Positions 26,020-51,700 of a stretch of 64,000 nucleotides of DNA are shown here, piece after piece; position 1 is the stretch's first letter; each line of letters begins with the position of its first letter. The stretch spans positions 175,635 through 239,634 of the forward strand of contig JADJCV010000003.1 in assembly GCA_016703025.1 (NCBI GenBank), read 5' to 3'. The notes beneath the pieces were generated by a model. That model did no database searches and was not told the origin of the DNA. It saw nothing but the letters and a program-made list of their open reading frames with translations. Source of the DNA: Candidatus Avedoeria danica. GTDB lineage: Bacteria > Chloroflexota > Anaerolineae > Epilineales > Epilineaceae. A program made the translations under genes and the position numbers.

Positions 26020-29000
26020 ATGTTGAAACACTGGAATGCGCGAATCATCATGGCGTTGGCGGCGCTCGGCCTCGTGGCCGTGGCCAACGGCTCAGTGGTC
26101 CATGGCAAGCCGGCCGAGATGCCTTCACAGGAAGTCACCGGCGGGCGGTTGGGGTTCATCCCCAACGGTGGGCAGTGGGACGAGGCTGTCCAGTTCCACA
26201 CCGAGAGTGGCGGTGTGGACGTCTGGCTGCAGCGGGACGGCTACACCTATGCCGTCGCGAACGACCACACCGGTGAGGCCCCGATCCTCACGGGCAATGA
26301 GCCCGACGTGGTTGACCCGCAGGGCGTCTACAGCGCCGACGTCCACGCGGTGCGCGTGACGTTCGAGGGCGCATCCGAGGCCACGGCGCTCCTGCCCACC
26401 GGCCAGCAGGCGGGCAAGCACAACTGGCTCGTCGGTCCGGAAGAGGACTGGGTCACGGACCTGAACGCCTACGGTGGCGTGAGCTACCGTGACGTCTGGC
26501 CGGGCATCGAGGCCTCGGTCCGCACCGGCGGCGGCCCGATGGCCGTTGGTCAGCAGGCGCCCGGTGGCCAGTCGGTCGTGAAGTGGAGCTACCACCTCGC
26601 GCCGAACGCCGACCCGTCGCAGATCCAGCTTCGCTTCGAGGGCGCGGACAGCGTCGCGATCGAGAACGGGTTGCTGAAGATCGGTACCCAGCTCGGTGAC
26701 TTCACCGAGACCGGGCTGATCGCGTTCCAGGACGTCGCGGGCGAGCGCCGCGCGGTGAGCGCGGAGTTCACGCTGGTCGGCGACACCGTCGGCTTCGCGG
26801 TCGGCGCCTACAACCCGGCGCTGCCGCTCGTCATCGACCCGGTCGTCCTCTTCTCGCGCCGCTTCGGCGGCAGCTCGACCGACCTGTCGTCCGGCATTTC
26901 GCGCGACGGGGCCGGCAACCTCTACACCTCCGGCTGGACGGCGTCGACGAACTACCCGACGCAGAGCGGCTTCCAGAACGCGGCCAACGTTACCTATGAC
27001 TGCTTCGTCACGAAGACGAACGCCGACAACTCGGCGCTCACGTACTCGACGTACATCGGCAGCAACAGCACGGACGCGGACTGCCGCAGCGTGCTCAACC
27101 CGAACAACGAAGTGATCCTCTCGGCGATCACGTTCAGCACGCTCTGGGTCGGCGCGCCGTTCCTCATCGGCACGCCCGGCGGGACGCCCGATGTCGGCAT
27201 GGTCATCCTGAACGCGGCCGGCAACGGCCTCGTCGCCTCGGCCCGCGTCGGCGCGACCAGCAGCGACTACGCGCACGGTCTCGCCCGCATGCCCAACGGC
27301 AACATCGTCGTCACCGGCCAGACGTTCTCGACGACCGGCTGGCCGGCGCTCGGCGGCTTCCGCCCGGCCCTCATCGGCTCGCCGGACGGCTTCGCGATCG
27401 TCCTGAACAGCGGCATCTCCGCTGCGACGGCGTTCTCGTACTTCGGCGGCAACAGCTCGGACTACGGCGGCGGCGTCGCGGTCGACGCCAGCAACAACAT
27501 CTACGCGATGTACGGCACGCTTTCGACGGATCCGACGCTCATCGGTGGCGGCGGCGGCAACTACGACGTCGGCGTGGCCAAGTTCAACTCCACGTTGACG
27601 GCGCAGACCTACAACTCGCGCTTCGGCGGTAACTCGACCGAGCCGTTCAGCCCGTGCGACACGTGTGCGCCGGGCACGCTCTACCAGACGGACAATAGCC
27701 TGATCGCCGTCGACGCCGCGGGCCGCGTGTACGTCACCGGCGCGACGGCATCGACGGACTACCCGACGACGGCCGGCTCGTTCCAGCCGGCGGCCTCGGC
27801 GGTGTACGACGGCTTCGTGACGATCGTCAACGCCGCGGGTAACGGGCTTGCGGCGTCGTCGTACCTCGGCGGCAACAGCACGGACACCGGCAAAGCGATT
27901 GGGATCGACGGCGGCGGCCGGGTCTACGTGGCCGGCCACACCGCCGCCACCAACTTCCCGACGACGCCGGGCGAGGTCCAGGGGACGAACGCCGGCAACT
28001 ACGATTACTTCCGGACGATCTTCCTGCCTGACCTCAGCGACATCGTTTGCAGCACCTACTGGGGCGGCAACAGCACGGACCATGTCGCGGACATGGAGAT
28101 CGTCGGCAACTACAAGACGATCCTGAGCGGCACGACCGCCAGCGCGAACTTCCCGCAGATCCCGAGCGGCTCGACCGTCTTCGGCGGCGGAGGCGGTTAC
28201 GACATCGGCAACGCCTACCTGAACTGCGGCGGCGCCAACCTCGTCATCACGAACTCGGCGCTGACGAACCGCGGCTCGGTCCGCACGTCCGTCAGCCCGA
28301 TCGCGTTCCCGGACGGCAACGGCGCCGAGCCGATGGCGGTCCAGCCGCCGGCGGCCGAGGCCGACGCGGCGGCGCCGGTGGCGGCGGACGGGGCCGTCCT
28401 GCCGTACGCGGTGCAGCAGCTGCCGGAGAACGAGGAGTGCCTCGCGCCCGGCAACTTCGTCCAGATCACGATCGAGATCACGAACACCGGCCTCTCGGAT
28501 CAGCTGGGCGCCGGGCCGGAGTACGTCGCATCCTGGGACGGCGGCCTGCTGGCCGGCCAGCCCGGCTCGTGCGCGTTCTTCGTCGGCGCCGGCAACTGCC
28601 AGGTCAGCGCCAGCAGCGTCAGCGTCGACGCCGACATCCCGTCGGGCGGCGTGATCCAGTTCGCCTGGATGGTCCGCATCGCCGGCGGCCTGGCTGCCGG
28701 GACGGTCATCCCGGTCAACCAGACGCTGTTCTACGACACGGACGATGACGGGATCAACGAGAGCTTCCCGCAGGACGCGCTGGGCTTCACGCTCAACTGC
28801 TTCCCGACGGTCTGGCCGAACAACCAGCTCGGCAAGCAGGTCCACCTCCCGATCCTGAACTTCCAGGGCCAGGACGACGTCTGCGAGAGCTGGATCGAGG
28901 TTCAGAACATCGGTTGCCGGATCGCCAAGGCGGCCCTGGTCACGTGGGGCGAGCCGGGCTTCTGCCCGCCGCAGGCCGCCGGCCCGCTGAAGGTGGAGTG

Positions 29001-31141
29001 CACCGGCCTCCTGAAGCCCGGCAGCACGTGGAACCTCTACGGCGCGCAGGTTCCGACCGGCTCGAAGAGCGGTATCCTCTTCAAGCTGTCGGCCCGCCAG
29101 CTGTCCGAGGACGGCATCGACGTCATCCCCGAGGACGACATCACGGGCGACTACGTCTGCGAAGTCCTCTTCTTCAACGTCGTCGGTGACGCGGACGACT
29201 ATCGCCGCTTCAAGAAGGCCTACAACGAGGGCCTCGTGTTCGACGGCATCGACATGGTCCGCGCTTCCGGCGACGGCCTGCTCGCGGTCGACGTGCACCG
29301 CAGCTGCCCCGGCGACGCGACCCCGGGCGTGGACGTGACGAGCAAGTACAACGGCCTGGCCGGTACGCACCTCGGCACGTACGACGAGGTCTACGGCGGC
29401 TACAGCTACTACGTGCCGCTCGTGTACGCCAGCGCCGCTGGCTTCAACACGATCATCTACATCCAGAACGGCGGCCTCATGTGCTCGTCGCTGGAGATCT
29501 GGTTCAAGGCCCGCGACGACTGCCTGCGCGCGACGATCTGCGACATCGCGACGCTGGCGCCGGGCGAGACCTACCAGCTGGACGCGAACGACTGCGTCGG
29601 CCCGGACTTCCAGGGCAGCGCGTGGATCCGCTCGACCCAGGTGATGGGCATCGCGGTGGACATCATCGGCGGCGACGTCCTGATGACCTACGTCGGCGAG
29701 CCGGGTGAGATCAACTACACGTTCGACCCGAACAAGTCGACGACGCGCGACGGGAACCAGGTGGCGTTCGCGCCGCTGACGTACAGCGAGTACCAGGGTT
29801 GGGACGCCGGCATCCAGGTGCAGAACCTGAGCGCGGTGTTCGCGGCGAAGGTGAAGATCTACTTCCTGGACCGCGGCGGCGACATCATCACGACGCTGGT
29901 GGACTGGGTCTGCCCGCGCGGGAGCCAGACGTTCTTCCTGCCGGTCGTGTTCGACCTGCCGGGGAACTGGGTCGGGAGCGCGCGCGCGGAGAGCCAGGAG
30001 TGGATCTCGCCGGGCAGCCCGAACGTGCTCGCGCCGAACATCGTGGGCATCGTGACGCTGATCAAGTACACGGACGTGGCGCGGACCTCGAAGAGCGAGG
30101 CGATCGCCTACAACATGCTGCCCGAGCACAAGATCTACGACTGGCAGCTCGGCTTCGGCGGCGGCGGGTTGGATAGCGGCATCGGGCTCATCGCGATCCC
30201 GTCGCTGCTGAAGGACCTGGAGAACAGCGGCCTGACGTCGGAGATCGCGATCGCGAACGTCGTACCGAAGCCCGGCTTCACCGACCTCGTGATCTACTTC
30301 TACGACCAGAACGGCCTGCTGGACTACGTGTGCCAGAAGCTGAACGAGAAGCAGGTCGAGTACATCGACCTCCAGACGTGGGGCTACATCAGCGACGGCT
30401 TCAAGGGCTCGGCGATCATCAGCGCCTGGTTCTGGGAGCACGACGTGTTCGACGACACGGGCTTCTTCCTGCGCAACCTGGTCGGCCTCGGCGCCGTGTC
30501 GGTGGAGCGCAAGGGGGACGCACTTGGGCGAGGACGTACCGGGCGACGAGTCGGCGGGTGACCGCGGCATCCCGTTCGCCCAGACGTTCGACGAAGAGGG
30601 CGAGCCGCTGTTCGAGTTCTGCTTCATGGGCCCGCTGCCGCTGTGCCCGGGCTTCGTGGACAACCGCCCGGCTCCGGGTGACTGCGTCGCGGCCGGCTTC
30701 GGTGCGGCGACGATCGAGATCCCGGGCGGCGCGCCGTTCTCGGCGTACCCGCGCGGTGATGTCGGTGGCGGCAACTGCACGAACGCGGGCGTGAACGACC
30801 GCAACTGGGGCACGCACGAGTTCTCCGTCTGCCCCGGCACGAACGACATGACGGTCACGATCAACACGGTCACGCTGGCGCCGTTCAACGGTGCGAGCTG
30901 CGGCCTTGCGGGTCAGGACCTGTTGCTCGCGCTGTTCATCGGACCGGACGGGTTCAACCCGAACGCCGAGTGCGAGAACTTCATCGAGAACAACAAGCCG
31001 GACTTCCAGGGTCTCGGCGCCGGCTCGTCGTACACGTTCCAGATCCCGAATGCACCAGGGGCTTACACGCTCATGATGCAGAACAACTGCGACACGACCC
31101 CGCCGCAGTCGATCGGTAGCGTGGACTTCGAGATCAACTAG
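26020..31141 (+). pseudogene. Giant secreted paralog A, interrupted by a one-base insertion in a G run (30513-30517)
   Basis: Track ORFs 25978..30561 and 30524..31141 together encode one protein that is colinear with paralog B. The likely start is ATG 26020 (MLKHWNARIIMALAALGLVAVANG, with GAGAGGG 9 nt upstream). Copy A reads caaGGGGGacg where copies B and C read caaGGGGacg. Domain order: signal peptide, DUF7948-like N-domain (FIPNGGQWDE), SBBP-type propeller repeats, DUF11-like domain, four uncharacterised modules, and a PPC-like C-terminal domain. Confidence 0.8.
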
Positions 31142-31446: not shown

Positions 31447-31502
31447 CGAAAATGACAGGCGCTCCCGTATCTCCGGCTCACATCTCGCGTTAATCCGCAC
31501 AT
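31447..31502 (+). promoter_or_regulatory. Conserved three-box upstream module, copy 2 (CGAAAA-N14-GTATCT-N15-CGTTAATCCGCACA)
   Basis: Same architecture as 25845..25900 and 36975..37030. Confidence 0.45.
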
Positions 31503-31624
31503 GTCACCACGGGTCGGCCGTTCGGCCGTCCCAGTGTGGCCCTTGCGCCGCAGCCCGTAGCTGCACGCCGCAGGGCGTCCTCACTCACCGTATGCGTCGA
31601 GATCAAGAGAGGGTTGCGACGGAA

Positions 31625-34600
31625 ATGTTGAAACACTGGAGTGCGCGAATCATCATCGCGCTGGCAGCGGTCGGCTTGCTGACCGCCGCCACGGGATCCG
31701 CAGTGCGAGGCCAATCGGCGGCCAAGTCGCCGCTTCCCTCGGCTGAGCCGGCGATCGGGTTCATCCCGAACGGCGGCCAGTGGGACGAGGCGGCCGCGTA
31801 TCACGCGGCACCGAGTGGGGTCGACGTCTGGTTGAAGACGAACGGCTTCGTCTATGCGCCGGGCGACACCGGCCTGACCCCGGGCGTCGAACTGCCGCCC
31901 GAGGCGTCCGAGACGCCCGCCGACGAGGTTCCGACCACGATCGCGCGCCACGTCGTCACGGCTGAGTTCGAGGGCGCTTCCGAAGGTGTGACGCTCGATC
32001 CGGCCGAGGGGCTGCCGGGCGAGTACAACTGGCTGGTCGGCCCGGAGTCCGACTGGGTGACGGGCTTGCACGCCTATCGCTCGGTGACCTACCGTGGCCT
32101 CTGGTCCGGCATCGACGCGACGGTACGCACCGGCAAGGCGCCGGCCGCGGTCAACGGCGCCCTGGCGGGCGACGCGATCGTCAAGTGGACCTACACGGTG
32201 GCGCCGGGCGGCGACGCTTCCCAGATCAAGCTGCGCTACACCGGCCAGGACAGCCTGGCGATCGAGAACGGCGTGCTCAAGATCGGGACGCAGCTCGGCG
32301 ACCTCGCCGAGACCGGCCTGATCGCATGGCAGGTCCGCAACGGCGAGCGACTTCCGGTCGACGCCGCGTTCACGATCGACGGCAACGTCGTCGGCTTCGC
32401 CGTCGGGGCATACGATCCGACGCTTGCGCTCGTCATCGACCCGGTGATCATCTTCTCGCGCCGCTTCGGCGGCAGCTCGACCGACTCGGCGTCGAACATG
32501 TCGGTCGACGGCTCGGGCAGCATCTACAACTCGGGCATGACGGCGTCGACGAACTTCCCGACGCAGAACGCCTACCAGGCCGCGGCCAACGTGACGTACG
32601 ACTGCTTCGTCACGAAGCTCAACGCCGACAGCTCGGCGCTGACGTACTCCACCTACCTCGGCGGCAGCAGCACCGATTACGAGTGCCGCCACACGCTGAC
32701 GCCGGCAGGCGAGGTCGTCGTCACGGCGACCGCGGCCGGGACCTGGGTCGGCGTGCCGATCCTCATCGGCACGCCGAGCGGCTTCGACGCCAACCTGGCG
32801 ATCCTCGGCGCGGCCGGCAACACGCTGACCGCTTCGGCTGAGGTCGGCGGCACGAGCACGGATTACGCCCACGGCATCACCCGGATGTCGAACGGCAACA
32901 TCGTCGTCGTCGGGACGACGAGTTCGAGCGCCGGTTGGCCGGCCCTCGGCGGCGCGGACATCTCGCTGACCGGCCAAGAGGCATACGCGGTCGTCCTCAA
33001 CCCGACGATCAGCGGCGCCGTGGGCTTCTCCTATGTCGGCGGCAACAGCAGCGACTGGGGCAACGCCGTCGCGGTCGACGCGAGCAACAACGTCTACGTT
33101 CACTACTCGACGCTCTCGACCGACATCGCGATGATCGCGGGCGTCGGCGGCAACTACGACCTCGGCGTGGCCAAGCTCAACGCGGGCCTGACGGCCTTCG
33201 CGTACCAGGGCCGCGTCGGCGGCTCGAGCACGGATCCGACGGCCGGCGGGAGCGACACCTCGGTTCCGGGCTCGCTCTACCAGATCGCCAACAACGGGAT
33301 CCTGGTGGACGGCAGCGGCCAGGCCTGGACGACCGGCATGACGGCGTCGACCGACTGGCCGACGACCGCGGGCGCATACAAGACGACGAACGGCGGCAAC
33401 TACGACGCGTTCGTCACGGGCATCAACGCCGCCGGCACCGGGCTGGTCCGCTCGACGTACATCGGCGGCACCAGCACCGACACCGGCCGCGGGCTCGGCA
33501 TCGACGGCACCGGCCGGATCTACATGGTCGGCTCGGCGGCCTCGTCGAACTACCCGACGACGCCCGGCGAGGTCCAGACGACGTTCGGCGGCAGCTACGA
33601 CTGGGTCCGAACGATCTTCCAGCCTGACCTGAGCGGTCTGGTTTGCAGCACCTACCTCGGTGGCAGCAGCACGGACTACGGTGCCGACATCGAGGTCACG
33701 GGCAACTACAAGGCGATCCTCAACGGCTCGACCGCCAGCGCGAACTTCCCGCAGGTCCCGGACGGCTCGACCGTCTTCGGCGGCGGCGGCGGCTACGACA
33801 TCGCGAACGCGCACATCACGTGCGGTGGCGCCAACCTCGTCATCACGAACTCGGCCCTGACGAACCGCGGCTCGGTCCGCACGTCCGTCAGCCCGATCGC
33901 GTTCCCGGACGGCAACGGCGCCGAGCCGATGGCGGTCCAGCCGCCGGCGGCCGAGGCCGACGCGGCGGCGCCGGTGGCGGCGGACGGGGCCGTGCTGCCG
34001 TACGCGGTGCAGCAGCTGCCGGAGAACGAGGAGTGCCTCGCGCCCGGCAACTTCGTCCAGATCACGATCGAGATCACGAACACCGGCCTCTCGGATCAGC
34101 TGGGCGCCGGGCCGGAGTACGTCGCATCCTGGGACGGCGGCCTGCTGGCCGGCCAGCCCGGCTCGTGCGCGTTCTTCGTCGGCGCCGGCAACTGCCAGGT
34201 CAGCGCCAGCAGCGTCAGCGTCGACGCCGACATCCCGTCGGGCGGCGTGATCCAGTTCGCCTGGATGGTCCGCATCGCCGGCGGCTTGGCCTCCGGGACG
34301 GTCATTCCGGTCAACCAGACGCTCTTCTACGACACCGATGAGGATGGGGTCAACGAGAGCTTCCCGCAGGACGCGCTGGGCTTCACGCTCAACTGCTTCC
34401 CGACGGTCTGGCCGAACAACCAGCTCGGCAAGCAGGTCCACCTCCCGATCCTGAACTTCCAGGGCCAGGACGACGTCTGCGAGAGCTGGATCGAGGTTCA
34501 GAACATCGGTTGCCGGATCGCCAAGGCGGCCCTGGTCACGTGGGGCGAGCCGGGCTTCTGCCCGCCGCAGGCCGCCGGCCCGCTGAAGGTGGAGTGCACC

Positions 34601-36937
34601 GGCCTCCTGAAGCCCGGCAGCACGTGGAACCTCTACGGCGCGCAGGTTCCGACCGGCTCGAAGAGCGGTATCCTCTTCAAGCTGTCGGCCCGCCAGCTGT
34701 CCGAGGACGGCATCGACGTCATCCCCGAGGACGACATCACGGGCGACTACGTCTGCGAAGTCCTCTTCTTCAACGTCGTCGGTGACGCGGACGACTATCG
34801 CCGCTTCAAGAAGGCCTACAACGAGGGCCTCGTGTTCGACGGCATCGACATGGTCCGCGCTTCCGGCGACGGCCTGCTCGCGGTCGACGTGCACCGCAGC
34901 TGCCCCGGCGACGCGACCCCGGGCGTGGACGTGACGAGCAAGTACAACGGCCTGGCCGGTACGCACCTCGGCACGTACGACGAGGTCTACGGCGGCTACA
35001 GCTACTACGTGCCGCTCGTGTACGCCAGCGCCGCTGGCTTCAACACGATCATCTACATCCAGAACGGCGGCCTCATGTGCTCGTCGCTGGAGATCTGGTT
35101 CAAGGCCCGCGACGACTGCCTGCGCGCGACGATCTGCGACATCGCGACGCTGGCGCCGGGCGAGACCTACCAGCTGGACGCGAACGACTGCGTCGGCCCG
35201 GACTTCCAGGGCAGCGCGTGGATCCGCTCGACCCAGGTGATGGGCATCGCGGTGGACATCATCGGCGGCGACGTCCTGATGACCTACGTCGGCGAGCCGG
35301 GTGAGATCAACTACACGTTCGACCCGAACAAGTCGACGACGCGCGACGGGAACCAGGTGGCGTTCGCGCCGCTGACGTACAGCGAGTACCAGGGTTGGGA
35401 CGCCGGCATCCAGGTGCAGAACCTGAGCGCGGTGTTCGCGGCGAAGGTGAAGATCTACTTCCTGGACCGCGGCGGCGACATCATCACGACGCTGGTGGAC
35501 TGGGTCTGCCCGCGCGGGAGCCAGACGTTCTTCCTGCCGGTCGTGTTCGACCTGCCGGGGAACTGGGTCGGGAGCGCGCGCGCGGAGAGCCAGGAGTGGA
35601 TCTCGCCGGGCAGCCCGAACGTGCTCGCGCCGAACATCGTGGGCATCGTGACGCTGATCAAGTACACGGACGTGGCGCGGACCTCGAAGAGCGAGGCGAT
35701 CGCCTACAACATGCTGCCCGAGCACAAGATCTACGACTGGCAGCTCGGCTTCGGCGGCGGCGGGTTGGACAGCGGCATCGGGCTCATCGCGATCCCGTCG
35801 CTGCTGAAGGACCTGGAGAACAGCGGCCTGACGTCGGAGATCGCGATCGCGAACGTCGTACCGAAGCCCGGCTTCACCGACCTCGTGATCTACTTCTACG
35901 ACCAGAACGGCCTGCTGGACTACGTGTGCCAGAAGCTGAACGAGAAGCAGGTCGAGTACATCGACCTCCAGACGTGGGGCTACATCAGCGACGGCTTCAA
36001 GGGCTCGGCGATCATCAGCGCCTGGTTCTGGGAGCACGACGTGTTCGACGACACGGGCTTCTTCCTGCGCAACCTGGTCGGCCTCGGCGCCGTGTCGGTG
36101 GAGCGCAAGGGGACGCACTTGGGCGAGGACGTACCGGGCGACGAGTCGGCGGGTGACCGCGGCATCCCGTTCGCCCAGACGTTCGACGAAGAGGGCGAGC
36201 CGCTGTTCGAGTTCTGCTTCATGGGCCCGCTGCCGCTGTGCCCGGGCTTCGTGGACAACCGCCCGGCTCCGGGTGACTGCGTCGCGGCCGGCTTCGGTGC
36301 GGCGACGATCGAGATCCCGGGCGGCGCGCCGTTCTCGGCGTACCCGCGCGGTGATGTCGGCGGCGGCAACTGCACGAACGCGGGCGTGAACGACCGCAAC
36401 TGGGGCACGCACGAGTTCTCCGTCTGCCCCGGCACGAACGACATGACGGTCACGATCAACACGGTCACGCTGGCGCCGTTCAACGGTGCGAGCTGCGGCC
36501 TTGCGGGTCAGGACCTGTTGCTCGCGCTGTTCATCGGACCGGACGGGTTCAACCCGAACGCCGAGTGCGAGAACTTCATCGAGAACAACAAGCCGGACTT
36601 CCAGGGTCTCGGCGCCGGCTCGTCGTACACGTTCCAGATCCCGAATGCACCAGGGGCTTACACGCTCATGATGCAGAACAACTGCGACACGACCCCGCCG
36701 CAGTCGATCGGTAGCGTGGACTTCGAGATCAACAGCCGATCGGCCGGTTCGGCCGGCGGACCGGGCAGCGCCCGGTCTGACCGAAGAACCGCCACCGCGA
36801 CGCTCGTCGACAGCCGCCCCCGGGGATTCCCCGGGGGCGGCTGCTGTTTGCCCGGCATTCCGACGGCGAACCACTGGGGCTCGGCGCTCGAATCACCGTG
36901 CTTCGAACCTGCATCGCCATGTGCACGAGATACCTAG
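31625..36937 (+). CDS. Giant secreted paralog B (SBBP propeller, DUF11-like, four uncharacterised modules, PPC-like domain), with a 60-aa read-through tail
   Basis: The likely start is ATG 31625 (MLKHWSARIIIALAAVGLLTAATG). Track ORF 31304..36937 simply extends upstream with no stop. The C-terminal core is nearly identical to paralog A. The TAG used by copy A is destroyed here: aacTAGccg in A reads aacAGCcg in B at 36731-36737. Translation therefore continues through the terminator hairpin to 36937. Confidence 0.85.
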   Translation: MLKHWSARIIIALAAVGLLTAATGSAVRGQSAAKSPLPSAEPAIGFIPNGGQWDEAAAYHAAPSGVDVWLKTNGFVYAPGDTGLTPGVELPPEASETPADEVPTTIARHVVTAEFEGASEGVTLDPAEGLPGEYNWLVGPESDWVTGLHAYRSVTYRGLWSGIDATVRTGKAPAAVNGALAGDAIVKWTYTVAPGGDASQIKLRYTGQDSLAIENGVLKIGTQLGDLAETGLIAWQVRNGERLPVDAAFTIDGNVVGFAVGAYDPTLALVIDPVIIFSRRFGGSSTDSASNMSVDGSGSIYNSGMTASTNFPTQNAYQAAANVTYDCFVTKLNADSSALTYSTYLGGSSTDYECRHTLTPAGEVVVTATAAGTWVGVPILIGTPSGFDANLAILGAAGNTLTASAEVGGTSTDYAHGITRMSNGNIVVVGTTSSSAGWPALGGADISLTGQEAYAVVLNPTISGAVGFSYVGGNSSDWGNAVAVDASNNVYVHYSTLSTDIAMIAGVGGNYDLGVAKLNAGLTAFAYQGRVGGSSTDPTAGGSDTSVPGSLYQIANNGILVDGSGQAWTTGMTASTDWPTTAGAYKTTNGGNYDAFVTGINAAGTGLVRSTYIGGTSTDTGRGLGIDGTGRIYMVGSAASSNYPTTPGEVQTTFGGSYDWVRTIFQPDLSGLVCSTYLGGSSTDYGADIEVTGNYKAILNGSTASANFPQVPDGSTVFGGGGGYDIANAHITCGGANLVITNSALTNRGSVRTSVSPIAFPDGNGAEPMAVQPPAAEADAAAPVAADGAVLPYAVQQLPENEECLAPGNFVQITIEITNTGLSDQLGAGPEYVASWDGGLLAGQPGSCAFFVGAGNCQVSASSVSVDADIPSGGVIQFAWMVRIAGGLASGTVIPVNQTLFYDTDEDGVNESFPQDALGFTLNCFPTVWPNNQLGKQVHLPILNFQGQDDVCESWIEVQNIGCRIAKAALVTWGEPGFCPPQAAGPLKVECTGLLKPGSTWNLYGAQVPTGSKSGILFKLSARQLSEDGIDVIPEDDITGDYVCEVLFFNVVGDADDYRRFKKAYNEGLVFDGIDMVRASGDGLLAVDVHRSCPGDATPGVDVTSKYNGLAGTHLGTYDEVYGGYSYYVPLVYASAAGFNTIIYIQNGGLMCSSLEIWFKARDDCLRATICDIATLAPGETYQLDANDCVGPDFQGSAWIRSTQVMGIAVDIIGGDVLMTYVGEPGEINYTFDPNKSTTRDGNQVAFAPLTYSEYQGWDAGIQVQNLSAVFAAKVKIYFLDRGGDIITTLVDWVCPRGSQTFFLPVVFDLPGNWVGSARAESQEWISPGSPNVLAPNIVGIVTLIKYTDVARTSKSEAIAYNMLPEHKIYDWQLGFGGGGLDSGIGLIAIPSLLKDLENSGLTSEIAIANVVPKPGFTDLVIYFYDQNGLLDYVCQKLNEKQVEYIDLQTWGYISDGFKGSAIISAWFWEHDVFDDTGFFLRNLVGLGAVSVERKGTHLGEDVPGDESAGDRGIPFAQTFDEEGEPLFEFCFMGPLPLCPGFVDNRPAPGDCVAAGFGAATIEIPGGAPFSAYPRGDVGGGNCTNAGVNDRNWGTHEFSVCPGTNDMTVTINTVTLAPFNGASCGLAGQDLLLALFIGPDGFNPNAECENFIENNKPDFQGLGAGSSYTFQIPNAPGAYTLMMQNNCDTTPPQSIGSVDFEINSRSAGSAGGPGSARSDRRTATATLVDSRPRGFPGGGCCLPGIPTANHWGSALESPCFEPASPCARDT
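33827..36905 (+). repeat. Near-identical block of about 3.08 kb, copy 2 (partner at 28231..31311)
   Basis: See copy 1. Confidence 0.9.
36811..36850 (+). terminator. Terminator hairpin of paralog B, identical to 31217..31256, now lying inside the extended ORF
   Basis: Same 15-bp stem, loop and CTGTTTG tail. Confidence 0.65.
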
Positions 36938-37138: not shown

Positions 37139-40100
37139 ATGTTGTGTCGAGTTCGTACGCGAAGTTGGATGGCGATTCTGGCGTCGGCCCTCGTGGCCGC
37201 CGCAGCGACCACGGGCGCCGCTCGGGCCCAGTCCGAGGACGGCGCAGCACCGGCAGGGTGCGCTGCCGGTGCCTGGGACGGCAACCTCGACTGTTCACCC
37301 CACCAGACCAAGATGGACGATCCGGTCGTCGACCAGGTCGAATCCATCGAGCCTGAGTTCGAGGCCGTGCGCAACACCTCGAGCCACGAGATGTGCCGCC
37401 TGCTCGCCGATGATCAGGCCCGCGAGGCGGCCGGCTGCTTCGAAGCCGCCAAGGCCGTCGACGTGCCCGCACCTCCTGGCCCGGGCAACACGGCGCTCAA
37501 TGGTCTGCCGATGTCCTTCGTCGCCAACCGCGGCCAGCGGCCGGCGGAAGTGCGGTTCGAGGTGAAGCGCAGCGGCCATAGCCTGTTCTTCACACCCGAC
37601 GCCGTGGTGTTCGCCGCCGAGGCCGCCGACGGCTCGGCGAAGACGGACGTCCGCATGACGTTCGACGGCGCGGCCGACGCGCCTCGTGTCAGTGGCATCG
37701 ACGCCCTTCCGGGCGTCCAGAGCTACTTCAGCGGCGACAAGTCCGTCACGGGCATACCGACGTTCGGCGGTGTCCGCTACGGCGCCCTCTATCCGGGCAT
37801 CGACCTGACGTTCAGCGGCCAGGCGGGCGCGCTGAAGCGCGAGTTCGTCGTGGCGCCGGGCGCCGACCCGTCGGCCATCCGGATGCGCTACGCCGGCGTG
37901 ACGGACATCCGCGTCACGGACGCCGGTGACCTCGCGCTCGAGACCGCGCTCTCGACGCTGACCGAGCAGAAGCCGTTCGTCTATCAGGAAGTCGCCGGTC
38001 GGCGCGTCGAGGTCGAGTCGGCCTACGCCGTCGACGGCCGCGTCGTCACGTTCGAGCTCGGCGCGTACGATTCGGCGCTCCCGCTCGTGATCGACCCGAT
38101 CTTCCAGTTCAGCACCGTCATCGGGACGACGGCGAGCGACATCGTCAACGCCCAGGTCCTCGACGCCGCCGGCAACGTCTACATCGTCGGCCTGACGAAC
38201 CTCGCGACGTTCCCGACCGGCGGCACGTCGACGACGTTCGGCACGAACGGTGGGCAGGAGGCGTTTGCCGCCAAGCTCACGCCCGATCTGAGCACGCTGC
38301 TCTACTCGGTGGTCCTGGCCAGCTCGAGCACGGACTCGGCGATCGCTGCGTCCATCCAGCCGGGCACGACGCAGCTCGACATCTTCGGCACGACCTTGAC
38401 GAGCAACTTCCCGGTTTGCACCGGCTTCGGCCTGCCCTTCGCCACGTGCACCGGCGCCGCGTTCGACACGACGTTCAACGGCGGCGCGGACTACTTCGTC
38501 GCCCGGCTGAACGCGGCCGGGACGGGGCTGCTCGGCAGCACGTACCTCGGCGGCACGTCCACCGAGCAGGGCGTCGGCGGCATCGACACGTATGCCAACG
38601 GCGACGTCTGGGTCGTCGGCAGCTCCAGCTCGACGAACTATCCGTTCCTGAACCCGTTCGCCGGGACGCAGACGTCCCTCACCGCCGGCAGCACCGACCC
38701 GGTGATCACCGGCCTGCGCGCGGACCACACCCTCACGTTCGCCAGCGGCTACCTCGGCGGCAACACGACGGACCAGGCGTTCGCCGTGACGATCGACCAG
38801 TCCGGCTTGGACTTCCATGTTGCCGGCGTGACGTTCTCGTCGACGTTCCCGATCTGCACCGGCGCCGGGACGATGCTGAACGGCAACGTGAACAACTCGT
38901 GCACCGTCGCCGGCTTCGACACGTCGTTCAACTCCAGTTCGGACAGCTACGTGATGCGGATCGCGAACACGCTGCGCGTCGTGGCCAGCACGTACGTCGG
39001 CGGGACGAGCACGGACCAGTTCTTCGCCGTCGACCGCATCGGGGACGACACGGTCGCGTTCGGCAACACGCTGAGCAACCCCTACCCGACCACGCTCGGC
39101 GCGTTCGACACGACGTTCAACACGGGCGCCGACTACGCGTTGACGCGCTTGAACGGCGATCTGTCGTCGCTGGTCTACAGCACCTACATCGGCGGGTCCG
39201 GCACCGAGGGCGGCCGCGGCATCGACCTCGATGCCGCCAACCAGGCCCACGTCACCGGCTTCAGCTCGTCGGCGAACTTCCCGGTGCTCCTCGCGCCGGA
39301 CGGGACGCTGACGACGGCCAACGACGCCACCGTGACGAAGGTCACGGCGGACGGCTCGGCGCTGCTCTACAGCACGTACCTTGGCGCGGCCGGCAACGAG
39401 AACGGCCTCGCGCTCGACGTGTCGGCCAACGGCAACACCGCCTACGTCGCCGGCCTGACGTCCGCGGCGACCTTCCCGACGACGCCCGGCGCGTTCGACA
39501 CGACGCACAACGGCAGCAACGACGGCTTCGTGACGGCCGTGTCGCTTGCGCCGATCATGATCGGCGTGACCACATTCGAGGACCTGACCAAGTCCGTCCC
39601 GGGCGAGGATTGCCTCGGCTCGGGCGACCACGTCCTTGTCACGGTCAGCATGACGAACGCGGGTGACTTGCCGGCCACGAGCGGCACCTACACCGCTGCG
39701 TTCCCGCAGGGACTCGTCGGCGACACCGGCTCGTGCAGCGATCCCGGCTGTGCCGTCACCCCCGGCGGCGTGTCGGCGAACTTCACGTTCGCCCCGCCCC
39801 TTGCCCCGGGCTCCACGTTCGTGTTCACATACCGCGTCTACATTTCCGGTGGGACCTTCGGTCGCCGAATCCTCACGGTCGTGGCCAGCGGCTCGTTCGG
39901 CGCGAACGGCATCACGTCCTCGCAGGATCTGAGCTACGAGCTCGCGATGACGTGCCCGCCGCAGGTCGACCCGAACAGCCAGCTCGGCAAGCAGGTCCAC
40001 CTCCCGATCCTGAACTTCCAGGGCCAGGACGACGTCTGCGAGAGCTGGATCGAGGTCCAGAACCTGGGCTGCCGGATCGCCAAGGCGGCGCTGGTCACGT

Positions 40101-42307
40101 GGGGCGAGCCGGGCTTCTGCCCGCCGCAGGCCGCCGGCCCGCTGAAGGTGGAGTGCACCGGTCTCATCAAGCCCGGCAGCACGTGGAACCTCTACGGCGC
40201 GCAGGTCCCGACCGGTTCGAAGAGCGGTATCCTCTTCAAGCTGTCGGCCCGCCAGCTGTCCGAGGACGGCATCGACGTCATCCCCGAGGACGACATCACG
40301 GGCGACTACGTCTGCGAGGTCCTCTTCTTCAACGTCGTCGGTGACGCGGACGACTATCGCCGCTTCAAGAAGGCCTACAACGAGGGCCTCGTGTTCGACG
40401 GCATCGACATGGTCCGCGCTTCCGGCGACGGCCTGCTGGCGGTCGACGTGCACCGCAGCTGCCCCGGCGACGCGACCCCGGGCGTGGACGTGACGAGCAA
40501 GTACAACGGCCTGGCCGGTACGCACCTCGGCACCTACGACGAGGTCTACGGCGGGTACAGCTACTACGTGCCGCTCGTGTACGCCAGCGCCGCCGGCTTC
40601 AACACGATCATCTACATCCAGAACGGCGGCCTCATGTGCTCGTCGCTGGAGATCTGGTTCAAGGCCCGCGACGACTGCCTGCGCGCGACGATCTGCGACA
40701 TCGCGACGCTGGCGCCGGGCGAGACCTACCAGCTGGACGCGAACGACTGCGTGGGCCCGGACTTCCAGGGCAGCGCGTGGATCCGCTCGACGCAGGTGAT
40801 GGGGATCGCGGTGGACATCATCGGCGGCGACGTCCTGATGACGTACGTCGGCGAGCCGGGCGAGATCAACTACACGTTCGATCCGGACCGCTCGACCACC
40901 AAGGACGGCAACCAGGTGGGGTTCGCGCCCCTGACGTACAGCGAGTACCAGGGTTGGGACGCCGGCATCCAGGTGCAGAACCTGAGCGCGGTGTTCGCCG
41001 CCAAGGTGAAGATCTACTTCCTCGACCGCTCGGGCGACATCGTCACGACGCTGGTGGACTGGGTCTGCCCGCGCGGGAGCCAGACGTTCTTCCTGCCGGT
41101 CGTGTATGACCTGCCGGGGAACTGGGTCGGGAGCGCGCGCGCGGAGAGCCAGGAGTGGATCACGCCGGGTGGTCCGAACATCCTCGCGCCGAACATCGTG
41201 GGCATCGTGACGCTGATCAAGTACACGGACGTGGCGCGGACCTCGAAGACCGAGGCGATCGCCTACAACATGCTGCCCGAGCATAAGATCTATGACTGGC
41301 AGATCGGCTCGATCGGCGGCGGGCTGGACAGCGGCGTCGGCCTGATCGCCATCCCGTCCGTTCTGCGCGACCTCGAGAACAGCGGCCTCACGTCGGAGAT
41401 CGCGATCGCGAACGTCGTGCCGAAGCCCGGCTTCACCGACCTCGTGATCTACTTCTACGACCAGAACGGCCTGCTGGACTACATCTGCCAGAAGCTGAAC
41501 GAGAAGCAGGTCGAGTACATCGACCTCCAGACGTGGGGCTACATCAACGACGGCTTCAAGGGCTCGGCCATCATCAGCGCCTGGTTCTGGGAGCACGACG
41601 TCTTCGACGACGAGGGCGTGTTCCTGCGCAACCTCGTCGGCCTCGGCGCCGTCTCGATCGAGCGCAAGGGGACGCACCTGGGCGAGGACGTACCGGGCGA
41701 CGAGTCGGCGGGTGACCGCGGCATCCCGTTCGCCCAGACGTACGACGAAGAGGGCGAGCCGGTCTTCGAGTTCTGCTTCATGGGGCCGGCGCCGCTCTGC
41801 CCGGGCTTCCCGGACAGGCGTCCGCAGCCCGGCGACGGTCCGGCGTGCATCTCGGCGCCGCTCGGCGACACCTTCGAGGCCACGAGCGGTCAGGGCAGCG
41901 GCTATGCCGACTGGCTGACCTACCAGGCGAACACGCGCGTCTTCCGCGACGGTGTGGCCAGCACGTGCAACCCGAAGGCGTGCCCCGGCACGAGCGGCGG
42001 CGGCGGCAACTTTGACCTCTACTACTTCAACAACTGCGACCGCGGCGAGCACTGCTTCACCGTGACGGTGAACACGGGTACGTGCACGACGAACATCCAC
42101 GGCGTCGCGTTCGCCGGCGAGGTCCCCGACGGCAGCGCGTTCGCCTGCCAGCTCGGCGACGCGGTCTACGTCGGCGATCTCGGTTCGAGCCTGTCCCAGC
42201 CGTTCTCGTTCACGATCCCGGCTGGAACGGCGCGGTGGACGCTGATGTTCCACAACAACTTCGGCGCCGCCACGTGTGACTACAGCTTCGTGATCACGGA
42301 GAACTAG
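37139..42307 (+). CDS. Giant secreted paralog C (1722 aa), with the same architecture but diverged N-terminal half and a different PPC-like C-terminal domain
   Basis: AGGGAGG lies 10 nt upstream of the ATG. The signal peptide is MLCRVRTRSWMAILASALVAAAATTGAARA. Has a DUF7948-like region (FVANRGQRPAEVRF...), SBBP repeats and a DUF11-like domain. The core from NSQLGKQVHLPILNFQGQDD to EFCFMGP is almost identical to A and B. Confidence 0.9.
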   Translation: MLCRVRTRSWMAILASALVAAAATTGAARAQSEDGAAPAGCAAGAWDGNLDCSPHQTKMDDPVVDQVESIEPEFEAVRNTSSHEMCRLLADDQAREAAGCFEAAKAVDVPAPPGPGNTALNGLPMSFVANRGQRPAEVRFEVKRSGHSLFFTPDAVVFAAEAADGSAKTDVRMTFDGAADAPRVSGIDALPGVQSYFSGDKSVTGIPTFGGVRYGALYPGIDLTFSGQAGALKREFVVAPGADPSAIRMRYAGVTDIRVTDAGDLALETALSTLTEQKPFVYQEVAGRRVEVESAYAVDGRVVTFELGAYDSALPLVIDPIFQFSTVIGTTASDIVNAQVLDAAGNVYIVGLTNLATFPTGGTSTTFGTNGGQEAFAAKLTPDLSTLLYSVVLASSSTDSAIAASIQPGTTQLDIFGTTLTSNFPVCTGFGLPFATCTGAAFDTTFNGGADYFVARLNAAGTGLLGSTYLGGTSTEQGVGGIDTYANGDVWVVGSSSSTNYPFLNPFAGTQTSLTAGSTDPVITGLRADHTLTFASGYLGGNTTDQAFAVTIDQSGLDFHVAGVTFSSTFPICTGAGTMLNGNVNNSCTVAGFDTSFNSSSDSYVMRIANTLRVVASTYVGGTSTDQFFAVDRIGDDTVAFGNTLSNPYPTTLGAFDTTFNTGADYALTRLNGDLSSLVYSTYIGGSGTEGGRGIDLDAANQAHVTGFSSSANFPVLLAPDGTLTTANDATVTKVTADGSALLYSTYLGAAGNENGLALDVSANGNTAYVAGLTSAATFPTTPGAFDTTHNGSNDGFVTAVSLAPIMIGVTTFEDLTKSVPGEDCLGSGDHVLVTVSMTNAGDLPATSGTYTAAFPQGLVGDTGSCSDPGCAVTPGGVSANFTFAPPLAPGSTFVFTYRVYISGGTFGRRILTVVASGSFGANGITSSQDLSYELAMTCPPQVDPNSQLGKQVHLPILNFQGQDDVCESWIEVQNLGCRIAKAALVTWGEPGFCPPQAAGPLKVECTGLIKPGSTWNLYGAQVPTGSKSGILFKLSARQLSEDGIDVIPEDDITGDYVCEVLFFNVVGDADDYRRFKKAYNEGLVFDGIDMVRASGDGLLAVDVHRSCPGDATPGVDVTSKYNGLAGTHLGTYDEVYGGYSYYVPLVYASAAGFNTIIYIQNGGLMCSSLEIWFKARDDCLRATICDIATLAPGETYQLDANDCVGPDFQGSAWIRSTQVMGIAVDIIGGDVLMTYVGEPGEINYTFDPDRSTTKDGNQVGFAPLTYSEYQGWDAGIQVQNLSAVFAAKVKIYFLDRSGDIVTTLVDWVCPRGSQTFFLPVVYDLPGNWVGSARAESQEWITPGGPNILAPNIVGIVTLIKYTDVARTSKTEAIAYNMLPEHKIYDWQIGSIGGGLDSGVGLIAIPSVLRDLENSGLTSEIAIANVVPKPGFTDLVIYFYDQNGLLDYICQKLNEKQVEYIDLQTWGYINDGFKGSAIISAWFWEHDVFDDEGVFLRNLVGLGAVSIERKGTHLGEDVPGDESAGDRGIPFAQTYDEEGEPVFEFCFMGPAPLCPGFPDRRPQPGDGPACISAPLGDTFEATSGQGSGYADWLTYQANTRVFRDGVASTCNPKACPGTSGGGGNFDLYYFNNCDRGEHCFTVTVNTGTCTTNIHGVAFAGEVPDGSAFACQLGDAVYVGDLGSSLSQPFSFTIPAGTARWTLMFHNNFGAATCDYSFVITEN

Positions 42308-42605: not shown

Positions 42606-43457
42606 ATGCTCGCCTGGACAATGCCGATGGATCGCCTCCCGAGCGCCGAACCCTTCCAGCATCCCGACGCCTACGACGGCGTTGCCGACGCGTACGACCG
42701 CTTCTGGGGCGACGCGCTGGCGCCTGCCATGCTCGGCGCGCTCGACCGCCTGCTGGCGTCCGTCCCTCCGACAGACGGCCGCGGCCGACTCCTCGACCTG
42801 TGCTGCGGCACCGGCCAGCTGGCCGCCGGCCTGACGGACCGCGGTTGGACCGTTGTCGGCGTCGACGGCGCGGAGGCGATGCTCGAGCGAGCCCGTCGCC
42901 GCGCGCCGACCACCACGTTCGTCCGGTCGGACATGCGGGCGTTTGGCATCGGCGGGGTCCTGCCGGGCGAGAGCGGCTCGGAGCCGCCGTTCGATGTCGT
43001 CGTCTGCGCGTTCGACAGCTTGAACCACTTGCCGGACGCCGCCGCGCTGGAGGAGGTACTCGGCCGCGTATTCGGCGCGCTCCGCCCCGGCGGCCGGTTC
43101 GTGTTCGACGTCAACCTGCGCGCAGGCTTCGAGGCGCGCTTCGAGGGCTCGCTCGGCTTCGCGGACACCGATCTGGTGTGCGTCGTCAACGCCGGCTTCG
43201 ACGGCTTGTACGGGCGCTACGATATCGCCGTGCTGCGGCCCGAAGCGCCGGCAGCGCTCGAAGCGCCAGCAGTGCCCGAAACGGCCTGGCGTCGGACGGA
43301 CACGACCCTCGTGCAGCGTTGCTTCGAGCTGTCCGAGATCCTCGCCGCGCTCGCCAACTCCGGCTTTCCGGACCCTGTCGTGCTGGATGCTGAAGACGAT
43401 CTGGGGATGGACGGGCATATCGGGCGGGCGGTGTTCGTCGTCGACCGACCGGGGTAA
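42606..43457 (+). CDS. Class I SAM-dependent methyltransferase
   Basis: LLDLCCGTGQLAAGL (motif I), VVGVDGAEAMLERAR, FDVVVCAFDSLNHL, ALRPGGRFVFDVN. Confidence 0.85.
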   Translation: MLAWTMPMDRLPSAEPFQHPDAYDGVADAYDRFWGDALAPAMLGALDRLLASVPPTDGRGRLLDLCCGTGQLAAGLTDRGWTVVGVDGAEAMLERARRRAPTTTFVRSDMRAFGIGGVLPGESGSEPPFDVVVCAFDSLNHLPDAAALEEVLGRVFGALRPGGRFVFDVNLRAGFEARFEGSLGFADTDLVCVVNAGFDGLYGRYDIAVLRPEAPAALEAPAVPETAWRRTDTTLVQRCFELSEILAALANSGFPDPVVLDAEDDLGMDGHIGRAVFVVDRPG

Positions 43458-48771: not shown

Positions 48772-51700
48772 CGGAGCGCCGGCATGTAGGCGATCATCCG
48801 ATCCGGGCCCGCCGTCGGCGTGGCACCGGGGATCTGCACCGGCTCGAGCGGCGGGCGGTTGCTCGGCAGGCACGTGTTGGACAGGTGGAAGTCCACCTTG
48901 GCGCTGCCGAGCGGGAAGTCGACCGCCGCGAGGTGGCGCACGGCCGGGCTGTTCGGGCAGCCGAGCCACGCGCCCGGCAACGCCTCGATCGACACGTCGT
49001 AGCCGCCGGCGTCCGGCGCGCCGAGGCTGAACGGGGCAATCTCGATCCGATCGACGGAGATCGAGCGCTGGCGCGCCACCTCGTCGCCGGCGGCGTTGCG
49101 GACGACGAACGTCAGTGCCGGCAAGGGCGATCGGGCCGCGGCGGCGCGGTCGGCGTCGTCGTACGTGCCGTCGCACGCGGGGCAGGCCGGGTCGTCGTTG
49201 CCCGTGACGTTGACGACGGCCACGGCGAGGAGCGTGACCTTGCCACCGCCGGGCGTCGCCGTGCCGGCCACGGAGCGCGTCGGTGTTGCGGTCGGCGTCC
49301 GGGTGGCGGTCGGCACCGGGCCGACATCGGCGGTCTTCTCGAGCTGCGGGACGAGCAGCCGCGCCGGCGGGACGGCCGGCCGCGGCAGGATGCGCATCGC
49401 CGCGGCCATCGCGTCGTCGTGCAGCCCGTCGTCGGACGTCTCGGCGTACGTGGCGACGACCGGCCCGGTGGCGGTGATCTCAGCCCATGCGCCCGGCGCG
49501 GCCGCGGCGCCGACGACCGCGCGGCCGTCGAAGGCGACCGCCGCGCCCGCGGGCAGCGCGGCGGTGCAGCCCGCGCAGGCAAGCGCGCCGCCGGCCGCGT
49601 CGTGCACGTCGAGCGCGACGTTCACGACGGCGTCGCCGACGTTCATCACGTGGATCGTCGTCGCGCGCCCATCGCGACCGGTCAGCAGGCGCGGCACGAG
49701 CCAGCGGCCACCGGCATCGGCGGCGGCCATCAGCCGATCGGCCGCCACGGCCCACCCACCGGCCGCGCTCGAGACGGACTCGACGGCGAGGCCGATGATC
49801 CCGCCGTCGAGCGTCGTCAGTGTGGCCGCCGCCGCGCAGCCGGCGGGCATCGCCGGCTCGGCGCCGACGTCGACGATGCGGTTCGCGCCGGCGGCCACGC
49901 TGAACGGCGCGCCGCTCAGCCGGAAACCGGCGCACGTGCCGGCCGTGCCGAGGTAGGCCGGCCGGACGACGACGGCCGTCGCACCGGGGTTGGCGACGAC
50001 GAGGCGCGTGTTCCGCCGCGCGCCGCTGCCGGCGCCCCCGAGCGGGCCGGCGGCCGCGACGCCGCGCACGACGCGCGGGGCGAAGAGCTTGGCGGCGGCG
50101 TCCGAGAGGCGCACCGCGCCGACATCGTACGCCCCGCGTGCGCTCGCGGCGGCGTCGACGAGCACCTGGGCGCCGAACGGCCGGTCGCTCGTCAGCCGCG
50201 CCCAGCCGTCGAACGCCGCGGGGGCGGCGATCGCCAGCCGGAACACGGCGCTCGGACCGACGGCGACGGACTGGCTGCCGACCTGTCGGCCGGTGCGGTC
50301 GAGGAACTCGGCGTGTACGTTCACGAGGAAGGTGGCCGCCGGATTGTGGATGGACAGCACGCCGGTCTCCCCGGCCGCCCCTTGCGGCGCGAACGGCACG
50401 GCCAGCTCGAATCCCTCGGCGGCGGGCTCGGCGAGGACGGCGGCCCCGCCCGTCCACTCCGTCCGCGCCGCGGCGCCGACCGCATGACCGCCGACGACGA
50501 TGGCGGCATACCGGCCGAGGCCGACGTCGTCCAGCGCGGCCAGTGCAAGCGCGTGCGGCCGGAGCGGCGGCTGGTCGCGGACGATGCGCGTCGGACCGAC
50601 CTTCGTGCCACCCACGGTCCCGCTGCCTTGGACGAGGAAAAGATCGGCCGCCAGGAACGCCGGGGCGTCCTCGAGGTTGGCCAGCTGAAGCGTGCTCAGC
50701 GCGCCGCCGGCCATGCCGCCGCCGGGCGCGAAGGGCGGGACGGTCGGCGGTGGGGTCGCGCTCGGGGCGGCGATCGGGGTGGTTGGCGTCGCGGTGGCGG
50801 CGTCCGCGGGGGGGGCGGCGCGCAGGACCAGGGGGAGCCACGTTCCCGGACTGGTGTCATCGCCGGTGCTGAGCCAGCGGAAGACCGCCGGCCACAGGAC
50901 CGCATCGCCGCTGCCGTCGGCCGGCGCAGCGCGGACGATCGCGACGATGCGACCCTCGTCGGCGGCGACGACGGCGCCGCCGGCCTGGGCGCGCAGCCCG
51001 GCCGGGAGCGCCGCCGCGCGCAACCGCCACGTACTGAACGGGGCGATGAGGCGGCGGCACGGCTCGCCGCAGTCCAACAGCGTGCCGTCGGCTGTTGCGA
51101 GATGGACCGTCGCCGAGGCGAACGTGCCTTCGAGGTTCATGATGAACAGATCGCTGTCGAGCGCCGCGCCGCTGTCGTCGGCGGCGAACCACGGGACAGC
51201 CAACTCGGCCAAGGACGAGGCGCCGTCGTCGCGCCGGAGCGCGTTCGTGGCGGCGGCCAGCGTCTGATCGCCGCGCGTCTGGCGGGCGATGAGCGTGGCG
51301 GCGATGGGCTGGTCCGCACTGATGAGGGCCGTCGCCAGACAGCCCGCGGGCAGGCCGCTCGGACTGGTCGGCAGGCCGGCGCCGTCGCCCTGATCGAAGA
51401 TCGTCATTGCGCCGGCAGCTAGAGTAACGGGCGGATGGGCGATCGTCTGCCCCGCGCACGTCCCGCCGAAGCCGACATAACTCACGCGCACGTCGCCGCC
51501 GGCCCCGCCGACGTTCACGACGGCCAGGCGGGTGGCATCCGGGCCGAGCGACGGGTCGTCCGGCAGCGCGGCGTGGACGAGCGGGACGAAGAGGGCGGTG
51601 GTGCCGCGCTCGGCAGGCACGCCGGCGAAGTCGTACACCGCCGCGGTCTCAGCCACATCCACGAGGGCGTGGACCACGGGGATCGCGTCTCCGACGGGGT

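Follow-up and report, generated by a model that had tools for sequence, protein, structure and literature searches.

Three giant secreted proteins, encoded in a 64,000-nucleotide stretch of the Candidatus Avedoeria danica genome (contig JADJCV010000003.1, positions 175,635 to 239,634; this whole stretch is the window below), share a core of four tandem units for which the most fitting description is a new tetrad variant, rich in Cys and highly conserved, of ASRAH, a known, barely studied superfamily of β-sandwich domains. The identity of the module is reasonably secure, and its function is a prediction; taken as a whole, an ASRAH tetrad that binds glycans and possibly anchors its bearers to the envelope is the explanation that we consider probable. 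Anaerolineae of the Chloroflexota are abundant filamentous bacteria of sludge, sediments and soils, and how they build and decorate their envelopes is poorly known. No surface-protein element is more expanded than this core across an entire order of these bacteria, yet it has neither a database model nor an annotation. As a member of ASRAH it would have a function open to testing, the binding of carbohydrate by a fused pseudo-tetramer, and the superfamily, known mostly from a cytoplasmic 14-kDa protein whose role is disputed, would gain a second, large extracellular branch. With a dedicated Pfam or NCBIfam model, thousands of giant proteins now called 'hypothetical' could moreover be annotated.

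The four-unit core and its relative in the window

The window (about 72% G+C) lies on contig C3 of a 4.35-Mb genome. The genes of the three giant paralogs follow one another head-to-tail on the forward strand: paralog A (P0003) at 25978-30561, paralog B (P0002) at 31304-36937 and paralog C (P0001) at 37139-42307. Pfam labels only an N-terminal DUF7948 in all three and, in A and B, SBBP propeller repeats as well; an NCBIfam scan of the three returned noise only. In paralog C the conserved core covers P0001 residues 952-1511 (window 39992-41671, QVHLPILNF to ...SIERKG). It recurs on the same strand in paralog B at 34433..36112 (P0002 residues 1044-1603; 1057 bits with the hidden Markov model, HMM, of the core) and in paralog A at 28837..30516 (P0003 residues 954-1513). 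The cores of A and B are identical (560/560), and either one shares 536/560 residues with that of C. A preliminary description of this DNA had placed a repeated module at 39965-41690 (P0001 residues 943-1517); this interval does contain the core, but the conserved block runs about 47 residues further, to 41812. The motifs it quoted are indeed strands of the domain, although AFAPLTYSE, LIAIPSLLK and SWIEVQNIG are the strings of paralogs A and B, and paralog C reads GFAPLTYSE, LIAIPSVLR and SWIEVQNLG at these coordinates.

An AlphaFold2 (AF2) model of the core, based on 58 homologs, reached a predicted local distance difference test score (pLDDT) of 86.2 and a predicted TM-score (pTM) of 0.89. 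It contains four consecutive sets of about eight strands (model positions 10-181, 197-295, 318-435 and 460-568), and this pTM shows the predicted arrangement of the four units to be fixed with confidence. In paralog C, on the forward strand, unit 1 is a β-sandwich at 39992..40549 (P0001 residues 952-1137; QVHLPILNF, SWIEVQN), followed by unit 2, the most canonical, at 40550..40900 (residues 1138-1254; YYVPLVYA, IYIQNGG), unit 3 at 40901..41320 (residues 1255-1394; GFAPLTYSE, GIQVQNLS, KIYFLDRSGD) and unit 4 at 41321..41671 (residues 1395-1511; LIAIPSVLR, IAIAN, IYFYDQNG, GFKGSAIIS).

The homology of the units emerged from comparison of profiles. Self-BLAST of the core found no internal repeat, and hhalign of units from a shallow alignment (56-85% identity) gave weak results, with only the pair of units 2 and 3 suggestive. 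Using 122 diverse core copies of <75% mutual identity, hhalign aligned in register units 2 and 3 (96.9%, E 1.6e-10), units 1 and 2 (93.9%, E 1.6e-7), units 3 and 4 (87%, E 4e-6) and units 2 and 4 (82%, E 1e-5), with lower values for units 1 and 3 (38%, E 3.4e-4) and units 1 and 4 (11%, E 2.7e-3). The preliminary description was therefore right to see a repeated module here: the AF2 strand sets and the in-register alignments both give four tandem units in the core, and the repeats are homologous by profile-profile comparison, with probabilities of up to 96.9%.

Each unit opens with a strand carrying a conserved Pro (P14, P203, P322 and P464; 84-99%). Strand 2 ends in an Asn (N33 in 86%, N220 in 98%, N339 in 98% and N483 in 95% of the 122 cores), strand 3 leads into a D..G turn, and G-S-A lies in a later strand. 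Eleven Cys columns are conserved at 75-98%, in agreement with the Cys richness earlier ascribed to the paralog units. Across the 122 cores, Cys, Gly, Pro, Trp and Asn make up the positions conserved at ≥90%, with three charged exceptions: R164, D354 (in the FLD..G turn motif of unit 3) and D499 (in the FYD..G turn motif of unit 4).

Two further elements accompany the sandwiches. Unit 1 has a helical insert, modeled by AF2 as three helices (model positions 112-153). This conserved insert (40298-40423, + strand; ..DYVCEVLFFNVVGDADDYRRFKKAYNEG..) holds R132 and R133, which are invariant in the alignment of close homologs and form an unusual charged patch within an otherwise all-β module. Following unit 4 is a Cys-containing tail (41672..41812, + strand; THLGEDVPGDE..GIPF..FEFCF..CPGFP) that belongs to the block conserved throughout the family. 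Its consensus is ERxGTxLGEDxPGDEAAGxxGxPxxxxxFxFxGxxxPxCPGxP, with G, D, P, C and G columns near-invariant, and it lengthens the module by about 120 nucleotides past the end first reported.

The window encodes one more protein with these units, P0004 (48765-52382, - strand), the ECF-linked protein. The HMM of the whole core, run on the open reading frames (ORFs) of the window, missed P0004. The unit-2 HMM matched it at 44 bits (E 6e-16), whereas neither the reversed sequence nor any of 20 shuffles scored above 1.3 bits. Unit HMM matches lie near residues 278, 415, 521, 690 (weak), 788, 918 and 1026, and the alignment resolves about eight units, arranged as two tetrads of four differentiated units with a Pro-rich linker between them. 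Tetrad 1 (50820..52283, - strand; residues ~165-652) includes the matches at 278, 415 and 521, its first unit and the limits of the tetrads being inferred from the homolog alignment; it closes with a strand-1-like TWLPLVLR, after which the linker begins. Tetrad 2 (49326..50708, - strand; residues ~690-1150) includes the remaining matches, from the weak one at 690 to those at 788, 918 and 1026. Only seven relatives of P0004 were detectable, and the AF2 model of tetrad 2 from this seven-sequence alignment (pLDDT 70.7; pTM 0.76) has four β units. Two P0004 homologs carry a third, inserted tetrad. By computation, P0004 is thus a pair of tetrads whose domain is a less divergent form of that in the core, and the module is common to the three giants and the ECF-linked protein, as had been proposed. 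To call it the building block of the whole secretome region was an overstatement, because among all window ORFs the unit HMMs match four proteins only, the three paralogs and P0004.

Relationship to the ASRAH superfamily

The ASRAH superfamily of 8-stranded sandwiches is defined by ASRT, the transducer for the sensory rhodopsin of Anabaena (De Souza, Iyer, Aravind 2009, PMC2739507). It is recognized by a near-invariant Asn that closes strand 2, with a tight, ungapped turn after it, and by a conserved Trp that comes after a polar residue where strand 1 begins (PMC2739507). TM1070, the Thermotoga ortholog of ASRT, is a tetramer with clefts partly at the subunit interfaces, and the families found outside the cell are built as dyads, as in an actinobacterial lipoprotein, or as tetrads, as in amidase-fused Chloroflexi proteins (PMC2739507). 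ASRAH domains are predicted to bind sugars or small molecules in a cleft lined by strand 2 (PMC2739507). Our literature search on ASRAH and on the Pfam family DUF5719 found this 2009 paper alone.

Neither a Pfam nor an NCBIfam model matches the core, even at E ≤ 10. At this level PF07100 (ASRT; gathering threshold 25 bits) and PF18986 (DUF5719; gathering threshold 26.2 bits) match neither the core nor P0004. The preliminary description, which could not name a family, was right as far as Pfam-A and NCBIfam go, but the module can be named at the superfamily level as a divergent ASRAH (ASRT/TM1070-like) β-sandwich. Very likely, the units form a Cys-rich, secreted branch of ASRAH that the PF07100 and PF18986 models miss, and we conclude that they fall outside the Pfam families ASRT and DUF5719 as now modeled.

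A Foldseek search of the PDB with the core model retrieved TM1070 of Thermotoga maritima (1nc7) at E 5.9e-4 and probability 1.00, with a target TM-score (TMt) of 0.71 over 111 of 116 residues. This was the only match with a high TMt, the remaining ones having TM ≤ 0.21 and a root-mean-square deviation (rmsd) of >16 Å. Likewise, 1nc7 was the sole high-TM match of P0004 tetrad 2 (TMt 0.70-0.73), so that both models pick TM1070. With about eight strands per unit and TMt values of 0.70-0.73 to 1nc7, the modeled units have the TM1070 fold. Viral structures gave only low-TM multi-sandwich matches in Foldseek.

The sequence marks and the domain arrangement point the same way. The ASRAH Asn at the end of strand 2 is present at 86-98% in all four units, and hhalign puts it on the Asn of ASRT and of PF07100-positive repeats. 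Dyad or tetrad organization recurs in the four units of the core and in the two tetrads of P0004, or three in its homologs.

A chain of profiles also ties the units indirectly to ASRT. Three marginal PF07100 matches in other Chloroflexota genomes are proteins with four W-Y-x-A-E-G...N-P repeats, and one of the three scores on both PF18986 (1e-13) and PF07100 (5e-9). A profile of these twelve PF07100/PF18986-positive repeats matched canonical ASRT in hhalign (97.8%, E 7e-13) as well as unit 2 (92.3%, E 5.4e-7), with lower values for unit 3 (59%) and unit 4 (30%). The comparisons support a transitive link from unit 2 through these repeats to ASRT.

Bridging proteins also occur within the A. danica genome, where the unit HMMs match 14 further ORFs (up to 1e-18), all stand-alone or double tetrads of the P0004 type, 10 of which match the PF07100-type repeat HMM as well (up to 6e-10). 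Five examples, each secreted, with about one or two tetrads, a unit HMM match and a sequence that begins GIQGAGATGIQVQNLD..., lie at C2:15037-16761 (-), C4:2385769-2387661 (-), C2:7704-9350 (+), C4:1949946-1951721 (+) and C4:1451837-1455403 (+); four of the five match the PF07100-type repeat HMM. Pfam assigned no family to four other tetrad proteins of the genome, among them those at C2:15037-16761, C4:2385769-2387661 and C4:1451837-1455403.

Several results weigh against an ASRAH identity. The strand-1 Trp is absent from the core units, which have Tyr or Phe (units 2 and 3), His or Phe (unit 1) or Ala (unit 4) two to three residues before the conserved Pro. Direct hhalign of the units with 14 canonical ASRT proteins of other Chloroflexota was in register and not significant (E 0.03-0.27), and PF07100 found no match at E ≤ 1 in the A. 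danica genome. Profiles of the core and of unit 2 returned only noise from the PDB sequences, the unit profile failing to retrieve 1nc7, and the ligand residues of the ASRT family (His and Cys of SHEshChhN) are not retained in the units. An independent β-sandwich family, whose likeness to TM1070 and ASRAH is convergent or generic, would account for the missing Trp hallmark, the lack of Pfam and NCBIfam matches at E ≤ 10, the non-significant direct alignment and the modest Foldseek E-value (5.9e-4). We regard such a family as improbable: two independent models each have TM1070 as their sole high-TM match, the Asn is in register within a tetrad arrangement, the profile chain has links of 92% and 97.8% with bridging proteins matched by both HMMs, and a P0004 relative is labeled DUF5719. 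As to the Trp, accepted repeats too are sometimes without it (KLYLAEG, TSYFAEG), and some P0004 units keep it (VWVPLV, RWLVPRL).

CARDB and DUF11 domains were considered for their x-V-x-N-x-G strand and tested through PF07705, PF01345 and fold matching. We rejected them because the Pfam matches of relatives to DUF11 and CARDB lie in their N-terminal parts and never in the core, and no such structure appeared at high TM in Foldseek.

Among known systems the closest in organization are the ASRT-like tetrads fused to N-acetylmuramoyl-L-alanine amidase in Roseiflexus, Chloroflexus and Herpetosiphon (ASRAH family 2; PMC2739507). Like these, the core is secreted, chloroflexotal and built of four tandem 8-strand sandwiches whose strand 2 closes with the Asn, and for both the prediction is a TM1070-like tetramer within one molecule that binds carbohydrate. 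Unlike them, it lacks an amidase partner, in a genome without Amidase_3, and has (Y/F/H)-x-P in strand 1 in place of W-Y-x-A-E-G. It differs too in its eleven conserved Cys, the three-helix insert of unit 1 and the conserved Cys-containing tail, its strongly differentiated units, its far higher conservation and its invisibility to PF07100 and PF18986. With TM1070 and ASRT (1nc7, 2ii7; PF07100, formerly DUF1362) the core shares the single-domain fold (TMt 0.70-0.73, rmsd ~3 Å over ~110 residues) and the four-fold organization. ASRT proteins, however, are cytoplasmic, stand-alone 14-kDa homotetramers with SHEshChhN, whereas the core has four non-identical units in one secreted chain, a signature reduced to the final Asn, and 11-18% sequence identity to them. 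A likeness to DUF5719 shows in a 48%-identical relative of P0004, annotated as 'DUF5719 family protein [Ardenticatenales]', that carries PF18986, and in the Chloroflexota repeats that score on PF18986 together with PF07100, although PF18986 gives no match at E ≤ 10 to the core or to P0004. DUF5719 is mainly actinobacterial and, we presume, may be the dyad lipoprotein family described by De Souza et al.

Distribution and predicted function of the core

As a family, the Cys-rich core with its four units stands apart and is very conserved. A search with it found hundreds of proteins with 56-85% identity over the full length and source labels of Anaerolineae, Ardenticatenales and Caldilineae, many of them made up of just the core between a signal peptide and a short tail with Cys. 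An exhaustive profile search gave 1192 clusters (50% identity) at E ≤ 1e-3 and 432 at E ≤ 1e-30, and in many proteins of 2000-4800 amino acids the core sits at the extreme C-terminus. All sampled genomes of the family (17/17) and order (18/18) bear it, with 4-37 matches each, compared with 0/6 genomes from the class's other orders; among 401 sampled genomes of the phylum, the full core was confined to its own genus. The family is greatly expanded in one order of Chloroflexota.

The A. danica genome has about 20 intact copies and several split by frame changes. In the intact copies 150-2300 variable residues precede the core and 40-270 follow it; across these paralogs the core is kept at 55-100% identity and the rest varies. 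Partner domains include DUF11 arrays (x8-9), CARDB, DUF7507/7619/7927, PPC, P-domain, dockerin and DUF7948-SBBP, and no catalytic partner domain appeared among the Pfam matches of core proteins.

Some copies depart from this layout. Ten metagenome proteins (P0125-P0131, P0134, P0139 and P0144) are relatives of 1500-2000 amino acids with three separate core-profile matches, suggesting tandem cores in one chain; Pfam found no match in P0125 and P0129. Copies broken by frame changes or stops lie at window 30513-30561 (the ORF of paralog A ends there, 15 codons past its core), C3:412318-415741, C3:426968-429752, C4:545784-551297, C4:1423411-1430002, C4:1437615-1446199 and C4:2424642-2427092, and paralog P0005 has a frame shift within unit 4. 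Such copies are pseudogenes, or else the repeated DNA was sequenced or assembled with errors.

For the function of the core we propose the following mechanism. The most likely packing of the four units would be a single rigid pseudo-tetramer that reproduces the TM1070 tetramer within one chain, because TM1070 itself is homotetrameric and ASRAH domains outside the cell come in dyads or tetrads; the pTM of 0.89 is consistent with such packing. The pseudo-tetramer would present ASRAH-type clefts to a carbohydrate ligand. By analogy with the superfamily, we give the core an even chance of being a glycan-binding module. The ligand could be a common polysaccharide of the cell's own envelope, with the core holding or assembling its bearers at the surface. 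We favor a ligand of this kind because the core is invariant and C-terminal in many different Sec-exported proteins that have a cleavable signal peptide, no LPXTG and no membrane anchor, in a genome whose six-frame search found no SLH domain. Our suggestion that the core is an envelope anchor remains tentative; were it correct, it would add a new non-covalent wall-attachment module.

SLH and CWB2 are three-fold cell-wall-binding modules of Firmicutes surface proteins, for which wall binding has been demonstrated. As an anchor, the core would act as their functional analog. They too have a fixed number of tandem repeats forming one pseudo-symmetric unit, shared by many paralogous surface proteins and wall hydrolases whose remaining parts vary. 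The likeness is one of function: the folds are unrelated, and wall binding by the core is inferred only. The amidase-fused Chloroflexi tetrads (PMC2739507) may serve as a precedent for wall targeting. A six-frame search of the A. danica genome for Amidase_3, sought as a link to wall targeting, found none.

Other observations tell against this proposal. The genome has three sortase genes, and tetrad proteins of the P0004 type bear a separate C-terminal tag, and therefore anchoring may rest on something else. The gene neighborhoods of two minimal family members had no shared context, and sugar binding by ASRAH is a prediction even for the superfamily itself (PMC2739507).

The main rival keeps the same identity and turns the tetrad outward, as a lectin head that binds external polysaccharides, cells or substrates, with the N-terminal domains as stalk or accessory parts. 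The predicted sugar binding of ASRAH domains would fit this, partners such as the DUF11 arrays (x8-9) are typical adhesin stalks, many family members have nothing but signal peptide and core, and stand-alone secreted tetrads exist. We nevertheless find an outward-facing head rather unlikely, as about 20 paralogs per genome with a core 55-100% identical and the rest variable fit better with a single partner on the cell itself, and the core is invariably C-terminal in giants that have no other visible retention signal.

C-terminal tags, remaining alternatives and neighboring genes

The separate tag of the P0004-type proteins is a C-terminal motif, (I/V)(Y/W/F)(L/M)P..xR (YLP tag), that ends 145 stop-to-stop ORFs of at least 150 amino acids in the A. 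danica genome, compared with 26 in a control internal slice. Most tagged ORFs encode large proteins; 9/16 non-core ASRAH-tetrad ORFs have the tag, compared with none of the canonical cores. P0004 itself ends in ...MIAYMPALRR (48768-48797, - strand), and a second tag of the window lies at 52585-52623 (- strand). The YLP tag resembles strand 1 of the units and, closer still, the strand after each P0004 tetrad (TWLPLVLR, LLVPQLEK), which suggests a possible strand-addition relationship between tag and units.

On this basis the cores could be a docking platform, the YLP peptide being a lone strand 1 that joins an ASRAH unit at its edge, in cis or in trans, with the cores as receptors. In an extended version, the Cys-rich tetrad would be the envelope-side hub of a lineage-specific display system that binds wall polysaccharide and whose unit edges accept, by β-strand addition, the YLP strands of more than 100 otherwise unrelated secreted proteins. 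The likeness of (I/V)(Y/W)LP..xR to unit strand 1 and to the tetrad-closing strand of P0004 would agree with docking, as would the excess of tagged ORFs and the absence of the tag from canonical cores. We nonetheless consider docking quite improbable, and the hub version equally so: AF2 gives the closing strand of P0004 tetrad 2 a pLDDT of <50, the tag could equally be the substrate signal of a sorting enzyme, and the basis of the proposal is resemblance. An enzymatic core (glycosidase, lyase or peptidase), for which one could cite that, for a module outside the cell, conservation is unusually high (56-85% identity between metagenome-assembled genomes), was rejected as barely credible because no catalytic constellation is conserved: the positions conserved at ≥90% are structural, both Asp among the charged R164, D354 and D499 lie in turn motifs, and the all-β sandwiches have no catalytic fold match.

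Just outside the window, 14 nucleotides beyond its end, three consecutive ORFs of 1754, 1069 and 1029 amino acids (C3:239648-249276, - strand) contain divergent, repeated part-cores in blocks of units 1 and 2 and blocks of unit 4, at 23-35% identity to the core. All three terminate in a YLP tag.

Among the other large secreted proteins of the window, some have no Pfam match at all. Three that Pfam labels, none of which the unit HMMs match, are an S8 subtilase with two CBM96 modules (8717-11380, - strand), a double-VWA protein with an NHL repeat (12392-15949, - strand) and an Invasin_D3/Big_1/DUF11 protein (22041-25685, + strand). The gene at 42606-43457 (+ strand), neighboring paralog C, encodes a class I methyltransferase.

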